From an uncultured delta proteobacterium (lineage in GTDB: Bacteria > Desulfobacterota > Binatia > Binatales > Binataceae): a stretch of 64,000 bases of DNA. The notes under the pieces were generated by a model that was given only the letters and a program-made list of their open reading frames with translations, did not search any database and had not been told where the DNA came from. The position numbers and the translations under genes are program-made. The DNA lies in assembly GCA_963711565.1 (NCBI GenBank), contig CAVQEQ010000004.1:544001-608000 (forward strand). Reading direction: 5' to 3'. Position 1 is the first letter of the stretch. Each line of letters opens with the position of its first letter. Positions 18,937 to 32,578 of this stretch are shown piece after piece.

Positions 18937-20154
18937 ATGAGAAATCTGCTCACCGGGCTGGACGTCGGCACCAGCAAAGTTTGCGCGATCGTCGGCGAAT
19001 CGCTGCCGGACGGCCAGTTGGCGACGCTCGGCTTCGGCGTCGCGCCATGCACGGGGCTGCGCAAGGGCGTCGTCGTAAATATCGAGGCGACCGTCGATGC
19101 GATCAAGGTTGCCGTCGAGGAAGCGGAGAAAACTTCCGGCGTGCGCGTCGGCTCGGTTGTAGTCGGCGTCGCGGGGCCGCATATCAAGGGTCTCAACAGC
19201 CACGGGATCGTCGCGGTGCGCGGCGGTGAAGTCAGCGCGCGCGATGTCGATCGGGTGATCGACGCGGCGCGCGCGGTCGCAATCCCTCTTGATCGCCAGG
19301 TCCTGCATATTCTGCCGCAACAGTTCGCCGTCGATGAGCAGGAAGGCGTGCGCGAGCCTTACGGGATGGCAGGCGTTCGCCTCGAGGCGCGTATTCATAT
19401 CATCACCGCCGCGCAGAGCTACGGCCAGAATCTCACCAAGTGCTGCGAGCGCGCGGGCGTGACGCCGTCCGAGATGGTTTTCCAGCCGCTCGCCTCGGCG
19501 GACGCGGCGCTGTTTCCGGAGGAGCGCGAACTCGGCGTGGCGCTGATCGATATCGGCGGCGGCACCACCGATATCATCGTCTTTCACGGCGGCGCCGTGA
19601 TGCATACCGCGGTGCTCCCGATTGGCGGCAATCATCTCACCAGCGACATCGCCGCCGGACTGCGCACTCCTATCTCCGACGCCGAACAGCTCAAGATCAC
19701 GTTCGGTATTGCGACCAATCAGGTCGTGCGGCGCGACGAGACGGTGCAGGTGCCGGGCGTCGGCGGACGCGAGCCGCGCGTGATCGCGCGCCGCCTGCTC
19801 GGTGAAATCATCGAGCCGCGCATGGAAGAAATTTTCACGATGGTGCAGCGCGAGCTGCTGCGCTCCGGCGTTTCCGACGGCCTCGCGTCCGGCGTCGTGC
19901 TGGTCGGCGGCACCTCGCTGCTCGAGGGCACGCAGGAACTCGCCGAGCGCATCTTCGGCCTACCGGTGCGGCGCGGACTTCCCATCAACTTGAAAGGACT
20001 GCCCGAAGAACTGATGAAGCCGATGTACACGACGGCCGCCGGCTTGTTGCTCCATCAGAGCGCGGTGGGCGGAATTGGCAACGGAGTTGGAAAAGCGGGC
20101 CGGCTTGGACGGCTGCGCTCACGGTTTAGCGATTGGGTGAGGGACTTCTTTTGA
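18937..20154 (+). CDS. ftsA: Cell division protein FtsA
   Basis: [36 protein letters not shown]. Confidence 0.97.
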
Positions 20155-20222
20155 GAAGTCGCCGAAACAAAAAATTTAATGGGCAACAAACTTTGCCGGT
20201 AGGTGGTGGAGGAGGATCTGTA

Positions 20223-21504
20223 ATGATTGAGTTGGTGAGTAATCCCGACCCGGGCGCGAGGATCAAGGTAATCGGTGCAGGTGGATGCGGCGGCAACGCG
20301 GTCAACCACATGATCAATGTGGGGCTGCGCAACGTCGATTTCATCGCCGTGAATACCGACATCCAGGCGCTGCAGAATAATCACGCGCCGCTGCGCGTTC
20401 AGATTGGCGACGAGATCACGCGCGGACGCGGTACCGGCGGCAATCCGGAAATCGGACGCAAGGCCGCGCTCGAAGACGAGGAGCGCATTCGCGAAATCCT
20501 GTCGGAAGCCGAGATGGTATTCGTCACCGCCGGAATGGGCGGCGGCACCGGCACCGGTTCTGCGCCAGTCATTGCGCGCATCGCGCGCGAGCTCGGCGCG
20601 CTGACCGTCGGCGTCGTGACCAAGCCATTCCAGTTCGAAGGGCGCCGGCGCATGTCGCAGGCCGAAGAGGGTTTGCGCGAGCTGAAGAACGCGGTCAACA
20701 CGCTGATCACGATTCCCAATCAGCGCCTGCTCTCGGTCGCGAGCAAAAATACGTCGCTCAAGGAATCGTTCCAGAAGGCCGACGACGTGTTGCTGCAAGC
20801 CGTGCGCGGTATTTCAGAACTCGTCACAGTGCATGGGCTGATCAATCTCGACTTCGCCAACGTCCGCTCGATCATGGCCGAGATGGGCATGGCGATGATG
20901 GGCGCGGCCACCGCTTCCGGCGAGAATCGCGCGGTCGAGGCGGCCCAGCGCGCAATTTCGAGTCCGCTGCTCGAGGACGTTCTCGATCAAGGGCGCGCGT
21001 GGCCTGCTGATCAACGTGACCGGCGGCTCGGACATGGCGCTCTACGAAGTCAACGAGGCTGCCAGCCTGATCCAGGAAGAGGCGCACGAGGACGCGAACA
21101 TCATTTTCGGCGCGGTGATCGACGACGCGATGTCAGACGAGATTCGCGTCACCGTGATCGCGACTGGCTTCGGCGATCTCGACCGCGGTACGTCGCGTTA
21201 CTCGCCGTCGGGCGCGCCGGTGACCACGCCGATCGCGGCGGCCTCGACCCGGCCGGTCGATCCGATGGAGGTCAAGCAGCCGGCGCCTGCCGCCCAGGCG
21301 GGGCAGGTGCGGATGTTCCCCGGCAACAAGCCGGTGCGCAGGATGGGCCTGGTCGTCAACGACAGCACGCTCGACATCCCGGCGTTTCGGCGCCGCGGCG
21401 AGGATTCGGGCCTGGCGGACGGCGAGAAGCTCGAGCCCAATTCGCTGCTCGACGGCGACGACAAGCTCGACATCCCAACCTTCCTCCGCAAGCACCTCGA
21501 CTAG
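20223..21504 (+). CDS. ftsZ: Cell division protein FtsZ, split by a +1 frameshift near 20980 (probable sequencing error)
   Basis: GGCGGNAV and GMGGGTGTG; removing one T from GACGTTCTCG restores [20 protein letters not shown]; the second frame ends in the conserved LDIPTFLRK. Confidence 0.95.
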
Positions 21505-21526
21505 CGCGGGCGATCACCGAAATAAT

Positions 21527-21566
21527 TGCGGCGCCCGAGTCTTACGACTCGCGGCGCCGCATTTTT
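21527..21566 (+). terminator. Rho-independent terminator after ftsZ
   Basis: TGCGGCGCCCGAGTC-TTAC-GACTCGCGGCGCCGCA hairpin followed by TTTTT. Confidence 0.8.
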
Positions 21567-21635
21567 GTTGTCATCGCTCGTGCGCCCGCGGTGGTGGATT
21601 GCTTCCCTTGGTCGCTTGGTGCATATTAGCAGGGG

Positions 21636-21652
21636 ATATCTCATAGAGATAT
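21636..21652. promoter_or_regulatory. Palindromic operator upstream of the RHH-MazF pair
   Basis: ATATCTC-ATA-GAGATAT ending 14 bp before the antitoxin ATG. Confidence 0.6.
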
Positions 21653-21666
21653 TTGGAGCGAAACTC

Positions 21667-21903
21667 ATGGAGTCTATCTCCCTAAAACTGCCCGAAAACC
21701 TGCTGGAAACCAGCGACCGATGCGCCCGCGCGCTCGGTATCCCGCGCGCCGAATATATACGCCGCGCGATTGAACGCATGAACCGCGAGGCCGAGGCTCG
21801 CGCTCGCGCGGAGCGGATGGCGCGCGCGTCGCGCAAAGTCCGCAAGGAAAGCATGCGTGTGAATGCCGAGTTCGCCGCGATTGAGCGCGACCCGGATGCC
21901 TGA
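21667..21903 (+). CDS. Ribbon-helix-helix (CopG-like) antitoxin
   Basis: ISLKLPENLL...GIPRAEYIRRAI; overlaps the toxin start. Confidence 0.85.
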   Translation: MESISLKLPENLLETSDRCARALGIPRAEYIRRAIERMNREAEARARAERMARASRKVRKESMRVNAEFAAIERDPDA

Positions 21904-22240
21904 GCGCGGCGATATCTGGATCGCCAATTTGAGTCCACGCCGCGGCACCGAGCCGGGCAAGACCCGTCCGGTGCTGATCGTCCAAGCGCAGTCGCTGATC
22001 AACGCCGGCCACGCTTCAACGTTGATAGTTCCTCTGACCACCAATCTCGCCGACGACGCCTATCCGTTGCGCGTACGCGTGCACGCGCAATCCTCTTTGC
22101 GGCGCAATTCTGATCTGCTGATCGACCAATTGCGCGCGATCGACAACCGCTTCCTGATCAAAGGCCCGCTATCACGTCTCGACGAAACAGCGATGGACCG
22201 CGTCGCCGCCGCTCTCCGCGAAGTTCTGGACCTTGGCTGA
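21896..22240 (+). CDS. mazF: PemK/MazF family endoribonuclease toxin
   Basis: RGDIWIANL.P..G.E.GKTRPVLIVQ, VPLTT, IDQLRAID. Confidence 0.92.
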   Translation: MPERGDIWIANLSPRRGTEPGKTRPVLIVQAQSLINAGHASTLIVPLTTNLADDAYPLRVRVHAQSSLRRNSDLLIDQLRAIDNRFLIKGPLSRLDETAMDRVAAALREVLDLG

Positions 22241-24431: not shown

Positions 24432-25202
24432 CTAGTACGCGGCGCTCTTGCGCGCCGAGTTGATCAGCTTCTGGATTTCCTCTTCGGTGAATCCCGCCAG
24501 CATCCGCGCCTCTTTCGCGATCGCGACCACTTGCCCGTCGTCGTTCTCGATATCTTCCTGCGCGCGCCGCCCGCCGCGGAAGTTGAAGACCTCGTCGACC
24601 ATGTCCTGGAACGCCTGCGCCTTGGCCAGCCGCTCGGGGTCGCCCTCGGTCAGCTTGCGCATCCACTTCGATCCCATGCGCACGTGCGTGATCTCGTCGG
24701 CCAGCACGTAGTCCACCGATCGCTCGATCACCTCGTCGCCGTTGCGCTGCGCGATCCGAATAAGCTGATCGAAGACGTCGCACGCGAGCCCCTCGAGCCC
24801 GCGATTTATTCCCGCGACCCGCGCCGCCGGATCCATCGCCTGCGTGCATCGCCACAAAATCTCCGTCTCGACGTAGTCGCCAGGATGCCCGCCCATGTAC
24901 TCGACGAGGCGCTGGAAAATCTCGCTGTGACGCGCTTCGTCCCACACCTGGCGCGCCATGTCGAGCTGGAACTCCCACGGCGCGTCCGGAAAATCGAACA
25001 GCGTGCGTCCCGCCGCCTCCATCGCCTGCAACTCGCCGGTGTAGATTCCATGCAGTCGCGAGCGCAGTGTCTCTTCGTCGAACGGCATCGGCCGCCCGCC
25101 TTCGAGGCCTTGCTCCTCGCGAATTTCGCGCACCTGACGGCTGCGCAACACTACCCAATTGTCGGGACGGGCAAGGCGGTCAACCGGGATACATTTTTCC
25201 AT
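24432..25202 (-). CDS. Ferritin-like diiron protein (DUF455-like), paralogue B
   Basis: HGIYTGE, WDEARH, GLEG, ADEITH diiron ligand pattern; C-terminal EARMLAGF. Confidence 0.85.
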   Translation of the reverse strand: MEKCIPVDRLARPDNWVVLRSRQVREIREEQGLEGGRPMPFDEETLRSRLHGIYTGELQAMEAAGRTLFDFPDAPWEFQLDMARQVWDEARHSEIFQRLVEYMGGHPGDYVETEILWRCTQAMDPAARVAGINRGLEGLACDVFDQLIRIAQRNGDEVIERSVDYVLADEITHVRMGSKWMRKLTEGDPERLAKAQAFQDMVDEVFNFRGGRRAQEDIENDDGQVVAIAKEARMLAGFTEEEIQKLINSARKSAAY

Positions 25203-25235
25203 CGCAAAAATTCCTTGGTGAATCGCGCCGCCTGA

Positions 25236-26036
25236 TTAGTACGCGGCGCTCTTGCCGAAGCCTTTGACCAGCCGATCGATTTCCTCTTCAGTGAATCCCG
25301 CGAGCAGCCGCGCCTCGCGCGCAATCGTCAGGCCCGCGTCGATTTCGATCTCCTTCTCATTGACGCGCTGCTTGACGTGATCGACATCCTCGATCCGCTT
25401 GCGCCCGGGACCGAAGTTGAACAACTCGTCGATCCGGTCCTGGAACTCCTGCGCCCGCTTGAAGCGCTCGGGGTCGCCCTCGGTCAGCTTGCGCATCCAC
25501 TGCGATCCCATCCGCACGTGAGTGATCTCGTCGGCCAGCACGTAATCTACCGAACGTTCGATAACCGAATCGCCCATCTTCTGCGCGATCCGAATCAGTT
25601 GCTCGAAGACGTCGCACGCGAGCCCCTCGAGTCCGCGATTTATTCCCGCCACGCGCGCCGCCGGATCCTCCGCCTGAGTGCACGACCACAACACTTCGCC
25701 CTCGGGAAATTCGCCGTAATACGATCCGACGTATTCGAGCAGCTTCATATAGATCTCGGCGTGACGCGATTCGTCCCACACCTGGCGCGCCATGTCGAGC
25801 TGGAATTCCCACGGCGCGTCGGGAAAGTCGTAGAGCGTGCGCCCGGCCGCTTCCATCGCCTGGAATTCCCCGCCGCAAATCCCGTGCATCCGCGATTTCA
25901 GGAAATCATCCTCGTACGGCATCGCGTTGCCGGGCGACAATCCCTGCTCGCTGCGCGCGTTGCGCGTGCGATTCGCGGGCAGCAGGATATGGTTCTCGGG
26001 ACGCGCCAGCTTATCGACCGGGATCATTCTTTCCAT
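25236..26036 (-). CDS. Ferritin-like diiron protein (DUF455-like), paralogue A
   Basis: HGICGGE, WDESRH, GLEG, ADEITH; colinear with the downstream paralogue. Confidence 0.85.
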   Translation of the reverse strand: MERMIPVDKLARPENHILLPANRTRNARSEQGLSPGNAMPYEDDFLKSRMHGICGGEFQAMEAAGRTLYDFPDAPWEFQLDMARQVWDESRHAEIYMKLLEYVGSYYGEFPEGEVLWSCTQAEDPAARVAGINRGLEGLACDVFEQLIRIAQKMGDSVIERSVDYVLADEITHVRMGSQWMRKLTEGDPERFKRAQEFQDRIDELFNFGPGRKRIEDVDHVKQRVNEKEIEIDAGLTIAREARLLAGFTEEEIDRLVKGFGKSAAY

Positions 26037-26055
26037 CGCCGTTGCTCCTTCGTTT

Positions 26056-26442
26056 TCATCTACTCCACGCTGACCTCTTGCCGGTCAGGTCCAACGCCTC
26101 GCGTACAGTCCATTCGCCGTCCTTCGGGCCGAGCCGAAACTGAAACTTGAACGGCTCGACGCCGGACCCCGTCAGCTGCGCCTTGAGAAAATAATGATGC
26201 GCCACGCGCGCGCGTCCAATAAGCTCGAACCTATCATACTTGTTCGCCGGAATCGCATTGGCGACCCGCATCATCTCGTCGCGCACATGCGCCGGCGTCA
26301 TCGCCTCGACGCTCGCATGGTCGCCGCGTATCAGCGCATTCAGCAGCCGCTCTGCCGCCGCGAACATCTCGGCCGGCGGCTCGACGATTTCCGCAATCGG
26401 CTGCGGCCCCATCACGTTGCCGCGTTCTCCCAAATCAGGCAT
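26056..26442 (-). CDS. Small hypothetical protein, NTF2/SnoaL-like pattern, paralogue 2 (start 26442 or 26412)
   Basis: Helical N-half, beta-rich C-half, ending DGEWTVREALDLTGKRSAWSR; overlaps the upstream stop. Confidence 0.75.
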   Translation of the reverse strand: MPDLGERGNVMGPQPIAEIVEPPAEMFAAAERLLNALIRGDHASVEAMTPAHVRDEMMRVANAIPANKYDRFELIGRARVAHHYFLKAQLTGSGVEPFKFQFRLGPKDGEWTVREALDLTGKRSAWSR

Positions 26443-26830
26443 TGCCGTTCCCCACGCGCGCCTGCTCGATCGCCGCCGCCAGATTCGGAACGTCGCTCCA
26501 CGGCGAGCGCTTGCCCGTCGTGTCCTCGACGCTCGCGATCGCCCACTTGCCGTCAGCCTCTTTGCGCCATCGATAGAGCACGCGACGCATTGCGCCGCCG
26601 TTCGTGAACCTGATTTTCGAAATGTACTGAAAACCCACCTTCGCCAGCGCCATCGTTTCGACGTTGACCGGCTTGCCAATCCGCCCAATCTCCGCCGCGG
26701 CCTGCCGATGCGCTTCGATTCCCTGCGCGAGCACGAAACGCTCCGCCGTCGCGCTATCGCCCGCCGCGAGTGCGCCCGCATGCGTCGCGATCGCCTCGCG
26801 CAGGTCGGTGATATCGTCCAGCTTCTTCAT
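26435..26830 (-). CDS. Small hypothetical protein, NTF2/SnoaL-like pattern, paralogue 1
   Basis: ALAAGD...AKVG.QY..K...DGKWAIASVEDTTGKRSPWS, motif shared with its neighbour. Confidence 0.75.
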   Translation of the reverse strand: MKKLDDITDLREAIATHAGALAAGDSATAERFVLAQGIEAHRQAAAEIGRIGKPVNVETMALAKVGFQYISKIRFTNGGAMRRVLYRWRKEADGKWAIASVEDTTGKRSPWSDVPNLAAAIEQARVGNGNA

Positions 26831-26835
26831 ATTGC

Positions 26836-27456
26836 TCAGCTGCGCCCGACTTTTCTGCGCGGCGCCGGTTCGTCCGCCTCAAACCCCGTCACTCCGCCCG
26901 ACGCGCCGAGCAATCCCTCGAGATGCGATTGCCAGTTCGCGGCGCGCAGATGCTTGTCCTTCGAGTCGAGCAGCTCGTTGAGCAGCACGCTGCCGCGCTC
27001 GACGTGACCTTTCTCCTCTTCGACCAGTCGCTGCAAAATTCGCAAGGTGGGCGGCTCGTACACGGGATTCATCGCCGTCAGATGCGAGCTGTAATGCGAA
27101 ATCAGATGCGGCTTCAGCACCCGGTAAATCCCGACCAGCCGCTCGATCGTGTCCTCCCACTCTTCCTTGTCCTCGATCGCGTTCATAAACGTGACGAACG
27201 CCTCGTTGGGAGCCTTGGAAATCTGCGGCTGCGCGCGCAGCTCCGGCAGCCGCTTGCCGAGCGCATCGGTATGCAGCGCGTCTTCGTACACCTGCTTCGC
27301 CATCTCGAGCTTGACCGCGAGCTCCGGCGTCAGCGCGATCCAGCCGGCCATCATGCGCATCATCCGCTCTTCGGCGTAGCGATAATTCTGGATATAGATG
27401 ACGCTCTGACGCACGCTGTAAACGCCGTCGAGAGTTCGCCTGTCGTAAAGTGCCAT
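26836..27456 (-). CDS. Ferritin-like four-helix-bundle protein (divergent)
   Basis: YAEERM...AGW, YEDALH and EEEKGH; GAGGAG RBS. Confidence 0.75.
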   Translation of the reverse strand: MALYDRRTLDGVYSVRQSVIYIQNYRYAEERMMRMMAGWIALTPELAVKLEMAKQVYEDALHTDALGKRLPELRAQPQISKAPNEAFVTFMNAIEDKEEWEDTIERLVGIYRVLKPHLISHYSSHLTAMNPVYEPPTLRILQRLVEEEKGHVERGSVLLNELLDSKDKHLRAANWQSHLEGLLGASGGVTGFEADEPAPRRKVGRS

Positions 27457-27486
27457 CTCGCAACTCCTCGTGATCGCCGCGCCGCC

Positions 27487-28146
27487 TCAGCGCGCGATGC
27501 TGCTGCTCGCTCCATTGGCGTTCCCGAAAAAACGGCCTTCGACTATCGCCGCAATCTCGCGCCAGTAAGTTTCCTTGTCGGTCCCCTTCAGATTGTTCGC
27601 GCCCATCGCCCAGCCCGCGCACAGCATATGAATCGCATGCACGGCGCTGCGCGCGTCCTCGAAATGAATCACGCCAAGCCGCCGCCCGCGCTCGAGAATC
27701 TCGGCCACCGCGCCCAGGTAGTCGCTGCCGATCTTCTTCATCGCCGTGCGATATTGCGGCCGCCGTTCGAGATACCGCGCCTCATGATGCAGCACATTAA
27801 ACGCCTCGCGATAACGATCGATCACGTCGAGTATCGCGCGCATCACCTCGATCAGCTCGCGCCGCGGGTCGCCGACAGTGCGCTCGCGAATCGCCGGCAG
27901 CATCTCGACCAACTCCGCCACCATCGACTCGCCAATCAGCGGAATAATCTCGTCCTTGCTGTCGAGATAAAGATAAATCGATCCCGCCGCCAGCCCCGCT
28001 TCGAGCGCCAACTCCTTCACCGACGCCTCATGAAACGACTTCCGCGCCAGCACCCGGCACGCCGCCAGAAAAATCTGCCGCCGCCGCGCCTTGACGAGCT
28101 TCTCGTCCGGCGCAGGTGCGCGTAATACTTCAGCGACTCGTGCCAT
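27487..28146 (-). CDS. TetR/AcrR family transcriptional regulator
   Basis: RRRQIFLAACRVLARKSFHEASVKELALEAGLAAGSIYLYLDSKDEI. Confidence 0.93.
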   Translation of the reverse strand: MARVAEVLRAPAPDEKLVKARRRQIFLAACRVLARKSFHEASVKELALEAGLAAGSIYLYLDSKDEIIPLIGESMVAELVEMLPAIRERTVGDPRRELIEVMRAILDVIDRYREAFNVLHHEARYLERRPQYRTAMKKIGSDYLGAVAEILERGRRLGVIHFEDARSAVHAIHMLCAGWAMGANNLKGTDKETYWREIAAIVEGRFFGNANGASSSIAR

Positions 28147-28155
28147 AGGCCAGTA

Positions 28156-28185
28156 AATCTACTGAATGAACGTTCATTTTGTCAA
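28156..28185 (-). promoter_or_regulatory. Sigma70-like promoter with a perfect palindromic operator (likely TetR site)
   Basis: Minus-strand TTGACA (28185-28180), 18-bp spacer, TAGATT (28161-28156); palindrome AATGAACGTTCATT at 28165-28178. Confidence 0.75.
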
Positions 28186-28468: not shown

Positions 28469-28912
28469 ATGCCCGACACTTTTCAAAAAGAAAGCACCCT
28501 CGACCGCTTCTTCAACCGCCTGATGGGCCGCGCGCTGCGGCTCGGATTCGCCCCCGCATATATGCGCCTGCTCGAGGTCCGCGGCCGCAAATCCGGCAGG
28601 ACCTTCACGACGCCCGTCAACATCCTCGACTTCAATGGCCGCCGATGGCTGGTTGCTGCGCGAGGCGAGACTGCATGGGCCCGCAACGCACGCGCCGCCG
28701 GCCACATCGTGCTGCGCCGCGGCTCCCGCGCCGAATCCCTGATGGTCCGCGAGCTCGCCGACGCCGACAAGCCCGAAGTCATCAAGGCCTTCCTCGATCG
28801 CTTCGCCTCGCAGGTCCAGCGTTTCTTCAACGTCCCCGCCGGCTCGCCCGTCAACGCATTCCGCGCAACCGCCTCGCGCACCCCAGTCTTCGAGCTAATC
28901 GCCGGCGCGTAG
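28469..28912 (+). CDS. Deazaflavin (F420)-dependent nitroreductase-family (DDN-like) protein
   Basis: LLEVRGRKSGRTFTTPV, LVAARGETAWARNARA, PVFEL. Confidence 0.85.
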   Translation: MPDTFQKESTLDRFFNRLMGRALRLGFAPAYMRLLEVRGRKSGRTFTTPVNILDFNGRRWLVAARGETAWARNARAAGHIVLRRGSRAESLMVRELADADKPEVIKAFLDRFASQVQRFFNVPAGSPVNAFRATASRTPVFELIAGA

Positions 28913-30808: not shown

Positions 30809-32578
30809 CTAGTACGCAGTAGCCGTATGCAGTTTGCGCGCGACGTTCATATTGTTGCCACCTAATGAAGGATCGGTCGTCAATGTGAACATATTGGTCG
30901 TAGGATCAAAGATCTCGGCGGTATTGAGCGTGTTCCCACTGCCGTCTTCTCCCCCGGTAATCAGTATCTTGCCATTCGATAGGGCCGCCGCCGCATGATT
31001 GAACCGCGCCGTATGCATCGAACCGACCGCCGTGAATGTTTCGGTTGCGACGTTGAACACCTCCGCTGTCGCAAGGACGTTACCTGAATCGTCCATTCCT
31101 CCCGCGATCAGCACTGAACCTCCAAAAGTGTATAGCGTTGCGGTATGCATCGCGCGTGCAACCGTCATGTTCGTTCCGCCGAGATCGATAGTAAGCGTAA
31201 ATTTATTGGTGACCGGGTTAAAAATCTCTGCCGTGGATTGCGCAACTCCGGCGGCATTCTCACCGCCCGCTACCAGGACATCGGTAACGCCGATCCCCAA
31301 CGGCGTCGCGGTATGAAACATGCGCGCCGCGTTCATCTGGCTGCCGCCCAATGATGGGTTGTCGGTCAGGGTAAAGGTGTTGAGTGTCGTATTGTACACT
31401 TCGGCACTTTGCAGAGCGCTGATTCCATCGAAGCCGCCGGTAATCACCGCGTTGCTAGCCGTGCAAGTGTCTCTCACCGACGGATTATAGGTCTGCAACG
31501 TAGATGCGGCTGCGTTCACGCGCGCCACGTTCATCATCGCTGGAGGAGGGACCTCCGCGGAATTGAGCACGGTTCCGGCCGCATCCTCGCCGCCCGCGAT
31601 TAAAAACGAATGCGTGTGATGCACGCCTAACAGTCCAGTCTCAGTATGACCCTCCCGCGAAACCGACATGCTCCCCGCGGTAAACTGGTTGGTGCTGCTT
31701 GTGAACGTCTCGGTGGTGGAGGTCGCGCCGGTCGCATCGATCCCGCCGCTCAGCAGGACGGTCGCAGGTGGATCTGGAAGGTCGTTTGCAACGGCGGCCG
31801 CGTGCCGGTAGCGGCTGTCGTTCATCGCGGTGCCGCCCAGGGACGGGTCGGTCGTAAGAGTGAAGGTGTTAGTCTTCGGGTTGAATACCTCCGCGCTGCT
31901 CAGCGGCGTTCCGTCCGATCCCTGGCCGCCGGCAATCAGAACCATCCCCGCGACATACGGCGTGGGCTGTTCCTCGGGTGTACACGATGCGGTTGAGGTC
32001 GGCGTGGGACTCATCGACCCCGTTGGCGTCGGCGTTGCAGTTGCAGTTGGCGTCGGCATCGGCGTCGGACCGGTCACGCCTTCGCCGCGCAGCTCGACCT
32101 TCTGCGGACTCCTGGATGCGGAGTCGGTAAACGTGAGTCCCGCCTTGTCCTTTATTTTGCCGATCGAGGTCGGATGGAATTCGACCCCTACCTGGCATCG
32201 ATTCCCCGCAGCCAGCAGCGCCCCGGAGCATCCGTCGCTTTCGATCTGAAAGGGAGGCGCGGCAACGATACTCTCGAAACTGACTGAAACTGACTTCGAT
32301 TTGTTCGTAACCACCACGCTTATTGCCGCGCTGTTCAGCGTCGCAATAACTTTCCCGAACTCGAGCTTTTGAGGTTCCAGTTTAAGTCTTGGGCATTGGT
32401 TCAGTTTGCAAACTGAACCCGTGTCAAGTGTTGCGATAGCTCTCTTATGCGTGTCCGACGAAGCGGCGTGATCGCCCGCGACCGCCAGGTCATAAACAGA
32501 CATCGCCACCCCGGCAACCACCAGAACCAGAAATATCCCCCGATGCAATCGAGGTCTATTTGAGAATTTACCCATCAT
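30809..32578 (-). CDS. Secreted Kelch-repeat protein with an N-terminal Ig-like (choice-of-anchor D/ASH-like) domain
   Basis: Signal peptide; LEFG...VTN...F...C...C.V.V.F.P domain; Pro/Thr linker; repeated R..H.A...VLIAGG...AEVF blades. Confidence 0.88.
   Translation of the reverse strand: MMGKFSNRPRLHRGIFLVLVVAGVAMSVYDLAVAGDHAASSDTHKRAIATLDTGSVCKLNQCPRLKLEPQKLEFGKVIATLNSAAISVVVTNKSKSVSVSFESIVAAPPFQIESDGCSGALLAAGNRCQVGVEFHPTSIGKIKDKAGLTFTDSASRSPQKVELRGEGVTGPTPMPTPTATATPTPTGSMSPTPTSTASCTPEEQPTPYVAGMVLIAGGQGSDGTPLSSAEVFNPKTNTFTLTTDPSLGGTAMNDSRYRHAAAVANDLPDPPATVLLSGGIDATGATSTTETFTSSTNQFTAGSMSVSREGHTETGLLGVHHTHSFLIAGGEDAAGTVLNSAEVPPPAMMNVARVNAAASTLQTYNPSVRDTCTASNAVITGGFDGISALQSAEVYNTTLNTFTLTDNPSLGGSQMNAARMFHTATPLGIGVTDVLVAGGENAAGVAQSTAEIFNPVTNKFTLTIDLGGTNMTVARAMHTATLYTFGGSVLIAGGMDDSGNVLATAEVFNVATETFTAVGSMHTARFNHAAAALSNGKILITGGEDGSGNTLNTAEIFDPTTNMFTLTTDPSLGGNNMNVARKLHTATAY

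Follow-up and report, generated by a model that had tools for sequence, protein, structure and literature searches.

PaaA, the catalytic ferritin-like subunit of the PaaABC(D)E system, possesses six metal ligands and Lys68, which forms a bridge four residues before the first ExxH motif, and is accompanied by a structural subunit of the same fold and a small third subunit, according to the parts of PMC4498308 used here. The soluble di-iron monooxygenases are defined by hydroxylase, reductase and coupling-protein components (PMC11825192, in the portion used here). Here, we describe a six-gene operon in a stretch of 64,000 nucleotides (nt) from an uncultured member of the Binataceae (GCA_963711565.1, contig CAVQEQ010000004.1, positions 544,001 to 608,000; hereafter the window), which encodes a TetR-family protein, a ferritin-like protein of 206 residues (F206), two small proteins (smA and smB) and two DUF455 proteins (D1 and D2). 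This operon is real, conserved and uncharacterized. We propose, giving the proposal as a whole an even chance, that it specifies a heteromeric di-iron enzyme under the control of a repressor; in this enzyme, F206 would work with either D1 or D2, which probably have one NTF2-like protein each, for O2-dependent oxidation of a substrate of the fatty-acyl-coenzyme A (CoA) type. That the proteins form a heteromeric metal enzyme is highly probable; given such an enzyme, an acyl-CoA or fatty-acyl substrate is slightly favored, and its oxygenase activity is inferred. An earlier note on this DNA had recognized no named pathway, and neither the family scans nor the literature searched gave a characterized counterpart. 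Titles and abstract openings retrieved under DUF455, PF04305 and COG2833, a scope that leaves aside supplements and most subscription journals, include no publication on this system and no DUF455 function, and the word "ferritin" is absent from the main text, in the part used here and supplements aside, of the Binatota genome paper (PMC8262859).

The operon and its DUF455 proteins

The six genes, in order from the promoter, are:

27487..28146, minus strand: tetR, TetR-family repressor of 219 residues (PF00440)
26836..27456, minus strand: F206, ferritin-like partner of 206 residues, predicted structural subunit
26435..26830, minus strand: smA, small accessory protein of 131 residues, paralogue of smB
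26056..26442, minus strand: smB, small NTF2-like accessory protein of 128 residues
25236..26036, minus strand: D1, DUF455 protein of 266 residues, predicted catalytic subunit
24432..25202, minus strand: D2, second DUF455 protein of 256 residues, with the ligand set of D1

The gaps between them are, in the same order, 30, 5, -8, 19 and 33 nt, and their third-position GC contents range from 0.76 to 0.83. These coordinates agree with the earlier note, which had described six co-oriented and tightly packed genes, and the motifs it quoted for the DUF455-like proteins are all found in the translations. D1 and D2 are DUF455-type paralogues, as it had claimed, with 106.9 and 93.8 bits, respectively, for DUF455 (PF04305; Pfam gathering cut-off 34.3) and 65% identity to each other; smA and smB are likewise paralogues (30% identity over 93 residues, E 4e-8).

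The predicted metal ligands of D1 are E57, E89, H92, E137, E170 and H173, which follow the pattern E/ExxH/E/ExxH, and D2 possesses the same set. In an alignment of 199 rows, the ligands are at least 95% conserved in each class. Q85, located four residues ahead of the first ExxH and matched to the PaaA position by spacing, is nearly invariant among the D proteins. Twelve class-specific positions separate D1 from D2, with class-specific residues at 54-55 and 109-118, and the fixed differences adjoin the ligands, which fits substrate choice by the two paralogues. Scores for two named families stay under the cut-offs: D1 scores 12.4 bits against PaaA_PaaC (cut-off 28.5), and D2 scores 17.1 bits against AurF (cut-off 29.6), to which D1 has no match. 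D1 is matched by 1,558 clusters at 50% identity; sequence searches of the PDB with D1, an F profile and a small-domain profile gave no meaningful match. A DUF455 gene on the Geobacillus plasmid pGS18 was considered as a relative and rejected, as its neighbors are transposases and an F domain is not clearly recognizable.

D1 is predicted by AlphaFold2 (AF2) to be a ferritin-like four-helix bundle with a predicted local distance difference test score (pLDDT) of 88.7. The top VIA row for this model is the VlmB homologue 6d9f (Z 14.4, root-mean-square deviation (rmsd) 3.9, 210 aligned residues), tied with many ferritin-like rows; fold searches with the predicted model name no reaction for D1. Bacterioferritins lead the Foldseek rows, and the VIA rows that tie include Dps and Mn-catalase; together with the lack of an encoded reductase, these matches could point to a ferroxidase, a peroxide- or NO-detoxifying or a radical-generating complex that protects fatty-acid oxidation and is not a substrate oxygenase. 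We regard this as very unlikely, as such matches span only the four-helix core (~140-160 residues) whereas those of 180-210 residues are to oxygenase-type proteins, and as two paralogues with fixed differences near the ligands fit substrate choice. The lack of a reductase or ferredoxin gene itself had been noted before, and no such family is found among the Pfam and NCBIfam matches of the six proteins.

Partner subunits and their conservation

F206, smA and smB have no match above a Pfam or NCBIfam cut-off. F206 scores 14.1 bits for DUF455, under the cut-off of 34.3, has no PaaA_PaaC match at E 0.1 and is recognized as a homologue of the D family by profile comparison only (hhalign, probability 97.5). 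The earlier description of F206 as ferritin-like holds, but a full ligand set is not present: Lys115 replaces the helix-3 Glu ligand (E137 position) in 55/55 rows, residue 59 (E89 position) varies among D, N, C and L, and H62, E148 and H151 are retained in the Binataceae. From its sequence, F206 may bind one metal or none. Since the D proteins keep all six ligands and F206 has an invariant Lys115 and a variable residue 59, the two are predicted to have catalytic and structural roles, respectively.

The subunit complex that the earlier note had supposed is predicted for F206 and D1, the pair that was modeled. The interaction prediction score from aligned errors (ipSAE) of the pair is 0.88-0.90 in three runs and that of the best of three controls is 0.00; contacts agree by at least 98% among the models, and the partner pLDDT is at least 85. 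Of 157 solved complexes, 116 attain the ipSAE mark used, as do 2 of 215 mismatches, a calibration that is roughly applicable as our own alignments were used. The predicted interface consists of helices 1 and 2 of each chain and includes none of the 12 class-specific positions of D1 and D2.

smB is predicted by AF2 (pLDDT 90) to comprise three helices and a curved four-stranded sheet, i.e., an NTF2-like fold, in agreement with its matches to 3fka in Foldseek (E 3.3e-5) and 3blz in VIA (Z 10.9, rmsd 3.4, 104 aligned residues); the same fold is inferred for smA from that of smB. The conserved basic residues of smB (R79, K87, position 89 and R103) alternate onto one face of the sheet. smA forms its own clade and resembles the C-terminal domain of the Rokubacteria F fusions described below (E 3e-9). 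No PaaB match is found among 126 small domains. The NTF2-like matches include ketosteroid isomerase, limonene-epoxide-hydrolase-like and dehydratase entries and the small domain is fused to F in Rokubacteria, which would also suit tethered downstream enzymes (an isomerase, a cyclase or an epoxide hydrolase) that act on an unstable product and are not adaptors. We consider such a role highly doubtful, given that in the 126 domains D41, located where a helix ends, is the sole polar non-basic column to reach 60% conservation, with no conserved Tyr, His or strand Asp/Glu, and given that F-D fusions without the small domain exist.

F206 is present in 27 of the 37 genus genomes and is strong in 55 of the 101 family genomes (59 matches in all, four of them weak only); its named relatives are Candidatus Binataceae. 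None of 150 other genomes drawn phylum-wide encodes F at E 1e-15, and no other Binataceae are among the rows shown. Some genus, family and order-wide tallies include genomes marked unpublished (G023; G077, G101, G103 and G118; and G188, respectively), on which alone no claim rests. Sixty-one larger loci were read, 59 with F206; the co-occurrence that the earlier note had called for is seen in 51 of the 59, in which the gene order is F-smA-smB-D1-D2. Three more are cut by contig ends, and five complete reduced operons possess a single D: three F-smB-D1 (three genomes, two genera), one F-smA-D2 (one genome) and one F-smA-smB-D2. In two reduced operons, tetR and half of the operator are also lost. 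As the F-smB-D1 form, seen in two genera, can only arise if two genes that are not neighbors are lost, it hints that smB pairs with D1 and smA with D2, two cognate pairs on one shared partner, and smA is thus likely to be the partner of D2 and smB that of D1. In a FastTree phylogeny that includes 23 of the 117 Rokubacteria-type rows for comparison, the 44 D1 rows and the 38 D2 rows fall into separate family-wide clades, so that the D duplication is older than the spread of the family. Two alternative catalytic subunits with one partner, as the earlier note supposed, fit both these clades and the reduced operons with F206 and one D. A single larger assembly that needs both D1 and D2 (e.g., F2-D1-D2-smA-smB) for two consecutive oxidations of one substrate is another reading of the 51 loci that have kept both paralogues since before the family radiation and of the one promoter for all genes; it is unlikely, considering the five operons with one D and the single D of the Rokubacteria loci (0/160 with two).

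The Rokubacteria-type loci were found with a query alignment led by a distant F relative, and the counts refer to the best 80 of 246 confirmed GTDB stretches, mostly Rokubacteria/Methylomirabilota, and to 80 of 557 metagenome loci, a selection that favors the same group. There, F is fused to a small smA-like NTF2-like domain, one D lies directly upstream of the fusion in all loci with room (78/78 genome and 70/70 metagenome loci), two D genes occur in none of the 160, and an orthologue is 56% identical. A biotin carboxylase gene is directly downstream of F in 72/76 genome and 70/71 metagenome loci, and two of the four genome misses do hold it but look frameshifted; a carboxyltransferase gene is less constant (23/49 and 14/23 loci, respectively, with 9 kb downstream). 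We examined 28 long proteins, drawn from the best 150 of the 1,558 D representatives (one came from a separate set), and 17 of the 150 combine an N-terminal F with a C-terminal D in ~400-550 residues, without the small NTF2-like domain; their taxa are given by Atlas cluster labels and, in one case, by a Chloroflexota name. In 18 fused F-D forms, all six D ligands are retained (18/18) and the F Lys is kept in 16, whereas the positions of H62, E148 and H151 vary. The two kinds of fusion thus join F with the small domain on the one hand and with D on the other. Long "F + biotin carboxylase" proteins and the majority of the "D + F" ones result from read-through in frameshifted assemblies and were rejected, serving only as a pointer to gene order.

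In G042, of another family, a D gene ~52% identical is found beside an F-like gene that is truncated where the contig stops (L031:4759-6066 and L032:3-386). Other families of the class possess a different tandem pair of ferritin-like genes (L035:4215-6330, L037:7836-9624 and L038:7248-9248), followed in L035 and L038 by a gene for a small two-CxxC protein, possibly another uncharacterized two-subunit di-iron system. Contigs of relatives from 8 of the 21 listed RNA runs were compared with the operon, most runs covering the six genes and one small run covering them partially; these runs were selected for containing the operon and carry no strand, level or single-transcript information, so that they are weak support for its expression.

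Operator, substrate clue and flanking genes

The region upstream of tetR includes:

28180..28185, minus strand: sigma-70-type -35 box with the exact consensus, kept or nearly kept in 21 genus loci
28156..28161, minus strand: -10-like hexamer with 10/12 consensus matches and an 18-nt spacer, assigned by consensus only (1 found versus 0.9 expected)
28162..28178, promoter spacer: putative operator, in which a 16-bp repeat, MTGAAY-N4-RTTCAK (28162-28177), overlaps a perfect 14-bp palindrome (28165-28178)

The -35 box thus lies at the right edge (28185) of the stretch singled out in the earlier note, and the promoter overlaps the conserved palindrome. The putative operator is present in 21/21 genus loci that contain the tetR start. 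The exact 14-mer occurs in 44 of the 101 family genomes (reversed control 0), in a single copy per genome bar one: 43 of the 55 genomes in which F206 is strong have it, as does 1 of the 46 others, and at least six of the 12 strong-F206 genomes without it show close variants. G150, a genome without the operon, has the exact palindrome in the interval that separates an SDR-like gene from two paired open reading frames (ORFs), one with a weak DUF455 match (L251:5945-8770), which may be chance. The operator has the geometry of FadR sites, a 16-bp inverted repeat with a 4-bp spacer, with one half-site off at the first base and the other at the last, and its half-sites and spacer resemble the B. halodurans FadR half-site ATGA(A/G)T given in the part of PMC5397183 used here. 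The best PDB matches of the window TetR are Bacillus FadR structures (E 2e-8) and its recognition helix is near-identical to that of FadR; it is 29% identical to a Rokubacteria FadR, with a divergent ligand domain. With one mismatch, the 16-bp motif has 72 matches in this genome, within the range of other spacer lengths. A wider regulon was rejected, since 18-bp patterns gave 5 and 7 matches, at or just above shuffled levels, and the window TetR appears to control the operon alone. The other three exact 16-bp sites of the genome (G000 C3:316253, C3:1342749 and C4:1216290) lie before one operon with an AurF-like gene, another with a ferritin-like gene (by eye) and a CoA-ligase-like gene, and a third.

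In Rokubacteria, the motif TGAAC-N4-GTTCA is found upstream of D genes in 96 of 113 regions, and it and the Binataceae palindrome both fit one 16-bp repeat. Five Rokubacteria genomes chosen for the locus contain 22 sites (reversed control 0), and an order-wide draw of 31 genomes contains 63 sites in 19 genomes (reversed control 3). Seventy-eight of the 80 distinct exact sites were read, two from an unpublished genome being left out. They precede genes for acyl-CoA dehydrogenase (18), fadR (16), thiolase (7), D (11, five of which stem from the genomes chosen for the locus), MadB-like ATPase (7), AurF-like proteins (5), a FabH-like protein (1) and others (13), where assignment to the thiolase and AurF-like classes was made by eye and checked against Pfam for one and two members, respectively. 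Acyl-CoA dehydrogenase, thiolase and fadR together account for 41 of the 78 sites, fadR is followed by an enoyl-CoA hydratase gene in the loci read, and the Rokubacteria regulators score 205.5 and 202.9 bits, above the NCBIfam FadR (NF053878) cut-off of 200. As the motif is common to beta-oxidation genes and the D gene, an acyl-CoA substrate is indicated; the case is strong for Rokubacteria and would only be carried over to the Binataceae by analogy. The same predicted Rokubacteria FadR regulon includes AurF-like di-iron genes at five sites (L306, L307, L334, L340 and L351) and, at seven sites (L282, L286 and others), an operon for a MadB-like AAA ATPase.

This substrate clue has to be weighed against a heteromeric O2-activating enzyme with a dedicated TetR sensor and a substrate other than acyl-CoA, which might, for instance, N-oxygenate an arylamine in the manner of AurF/VlmB, deformylate a fatty aldehyde or act on an aromatic compound. 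The VlmB homologue at the top of the VIA rows, the ADO-type proteins tied with it, the weak AurF match of D2, a TetR ligand domain only 29% like that of FadR and the lack of a second TetR target in this genome would all suit such an enzyme. It is nonetheless somewhat unlikely: the AurF score is under its cut-off, the Z values tie with unrelated ferritin-like folds and the 56%-identical Rokubacteria orthologue lies behind a site common to beta-oxidation genes.

Among the flanking genes, a divergent F420-dependent reductase-like gene (28469-28912) was considered as the electron donor and rejected, for it is coupled to a major facilitator superfamily (MFS) gene in 5/5 operon-less genomes; the reductase and MFS genes have little or no cover in the RNA runs, which were selected for the operon and thus rank nothing. 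A 17-bp palindrome resembling repetitive extragenic palindromic (REP) elements, with 102 copies in the genome, flanks the operon (24366, 28218 and 28355), and two copies form 25-nt inverted arms. Further away in the window, a gene that looks by eye like ftsZ changes frame near 21000 and so occupies two ORFs (20133-21629 and 21016-21504), likely by an assembly error; 21526-22240, between ftsZ and a phosphoenolpyruvate carboxykinase gene, encodes what we take by eye to be a small antitoxin-like and PemK/MazF-like pair; and 30809-32578 encodes a protein of 589 residues in which an Ig-like part, a linker rich in Pro/Thr and repeats of the kelch type are recognized by eye.

Proposed mechanism and relation to known enzymes

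We propose that an acyl-CoA-type ligand would release TetR from the promoter spacer and thereby lift repression, and that F-D1-smB and F-D2-smA would form a pair of isoenzymes that differ in their pockets. The di-iron site would be reduced by a ferredoxin or flavoprotein whose gene is located elsewhere, and it is this site that would activate O2 and hydroxylate, epoxidize or desaturate an acyl chain that plain beta-oxidation cannot handle, e.g., a branched one. The basic face of the small subunit may bind the CoA phosphates or an acidic electron donor.

Several observations weigh against this proposal. The Foldseek search with the D1 model gave no match at E 0.001 or better, and in VIA, Z values of 14.4-12 tie VlmB-like proteins, Dps, bacterioferritin, ADO, ToMO, MMOH and PaaC. 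The F206-D1 score may reflect likeness to solved ferritin-like dimers; likeness can bring both the two halves of a split gene and ferritin-like dimers that are already known past the ipSAE test. The predicted interface is not more conserved between D1 and D2 (18/24 positions) than the rest of the core (107/137). The pairing of small and D proteins depends on about three loss events, and one operon retains both small genes and D2 only. The operon contains no electron donor, and none is seen in 22 longer D relatives, which include no reductase or ferredoxin fusion, although the latter is weak evidence. On the regulatory side, the window TetR scores 52.9 bits against NF053878 (cut-off 200), which is its best NCBIfam match but not one of membership, and no FadR exceeds the cut-off in this genome. 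The 16-bp motif is not enriched there, with four exact sites compared with 0-7 for other spacer lengths, and the three sites elsewhere precede unrelated TetR-containing operons, so that it may be a generic TetR box. Finally, the substrate clue comes from another phylum, and neither carboxylase nor beta-oxidation neighbors are conserved at the Binataceae loci.

DUF455 is widespread, and no assigned reaction was found in the literature searched. The operon offers a defined set of subunits with a predicted interface, a candidate substrate class, and a repressor and operator that could serve together as a ligand sensor, and swappable catalytic modules would be of interest for biocatalysis. More tentatively, DUF455 may be an unrecognized family of heteromeric di-iron oxygenases of fatty-acyl-CoA catabolism, separate from Paa, Box and the soluble monooxygenases and with an NTF2-like third subunit, whose Binataceae version would be modular, one scaffold with two interchangeable catalytic and adaptor pairs widening the substrate range. 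If our main proposal is right, the O2-activating di-iron enzymes would gain a new branch, and fatty-acid breakdown in two uncultured soil lineages would include an unrecorded oxidative step.

Compared with PaaABC(D)E, D1 and D2 share the E/ExxH/E/ExxH pattern of the six PaaA ligands described in the cited part of that work, the PaaC chain 3pvr_B is among the VIA matches of D1 (Z 12.8, rmsd 3.6, 187 aligned residues) and a CoA-ester substrate is likely here. The operon differs in that it has no PaaA_PaaC membership, PaaE reductase or paa genes, in Gln85 at the position of Lys68, and in its NTF2-like small subunits, which are not PaaB, and two catalytic paralogues. With sMMO, ToMO and phenol hydroxylase it shares an alpha/beta-like pair of homologous ferritin-fold subunits, and the tied structural matches of D1 include ToMO beta (Z 13.8) as well as MMOH alpha (Z 13.5); however, none of the six proteins matches a hydroxylase, coupling-protein or reductase family of these systems in Pfam or NCBIfam, and MMOH alpha consists of 511 residues versus 266 in D1. 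The F-like N-terminal domain of the DUF455 F-D fusions carries the same Lys as F206, whereas the operon has split and duplicated genes, NTF2-like subunits and its own repressor. With Bacillus-type FadR (YsiA), finally, the window TetR shares operator half-sites, spacer and recognition helix, and the Rokubacteria regulator is a member of that family; the window TetR is not and appears to serve this operon alone. By analogy, the operon would work like PaaA/PaaC and the alpha/beta hydroxylases without being a member of either group, and it would be a new variant of the catalytic-plus-structural di-iron architecture.

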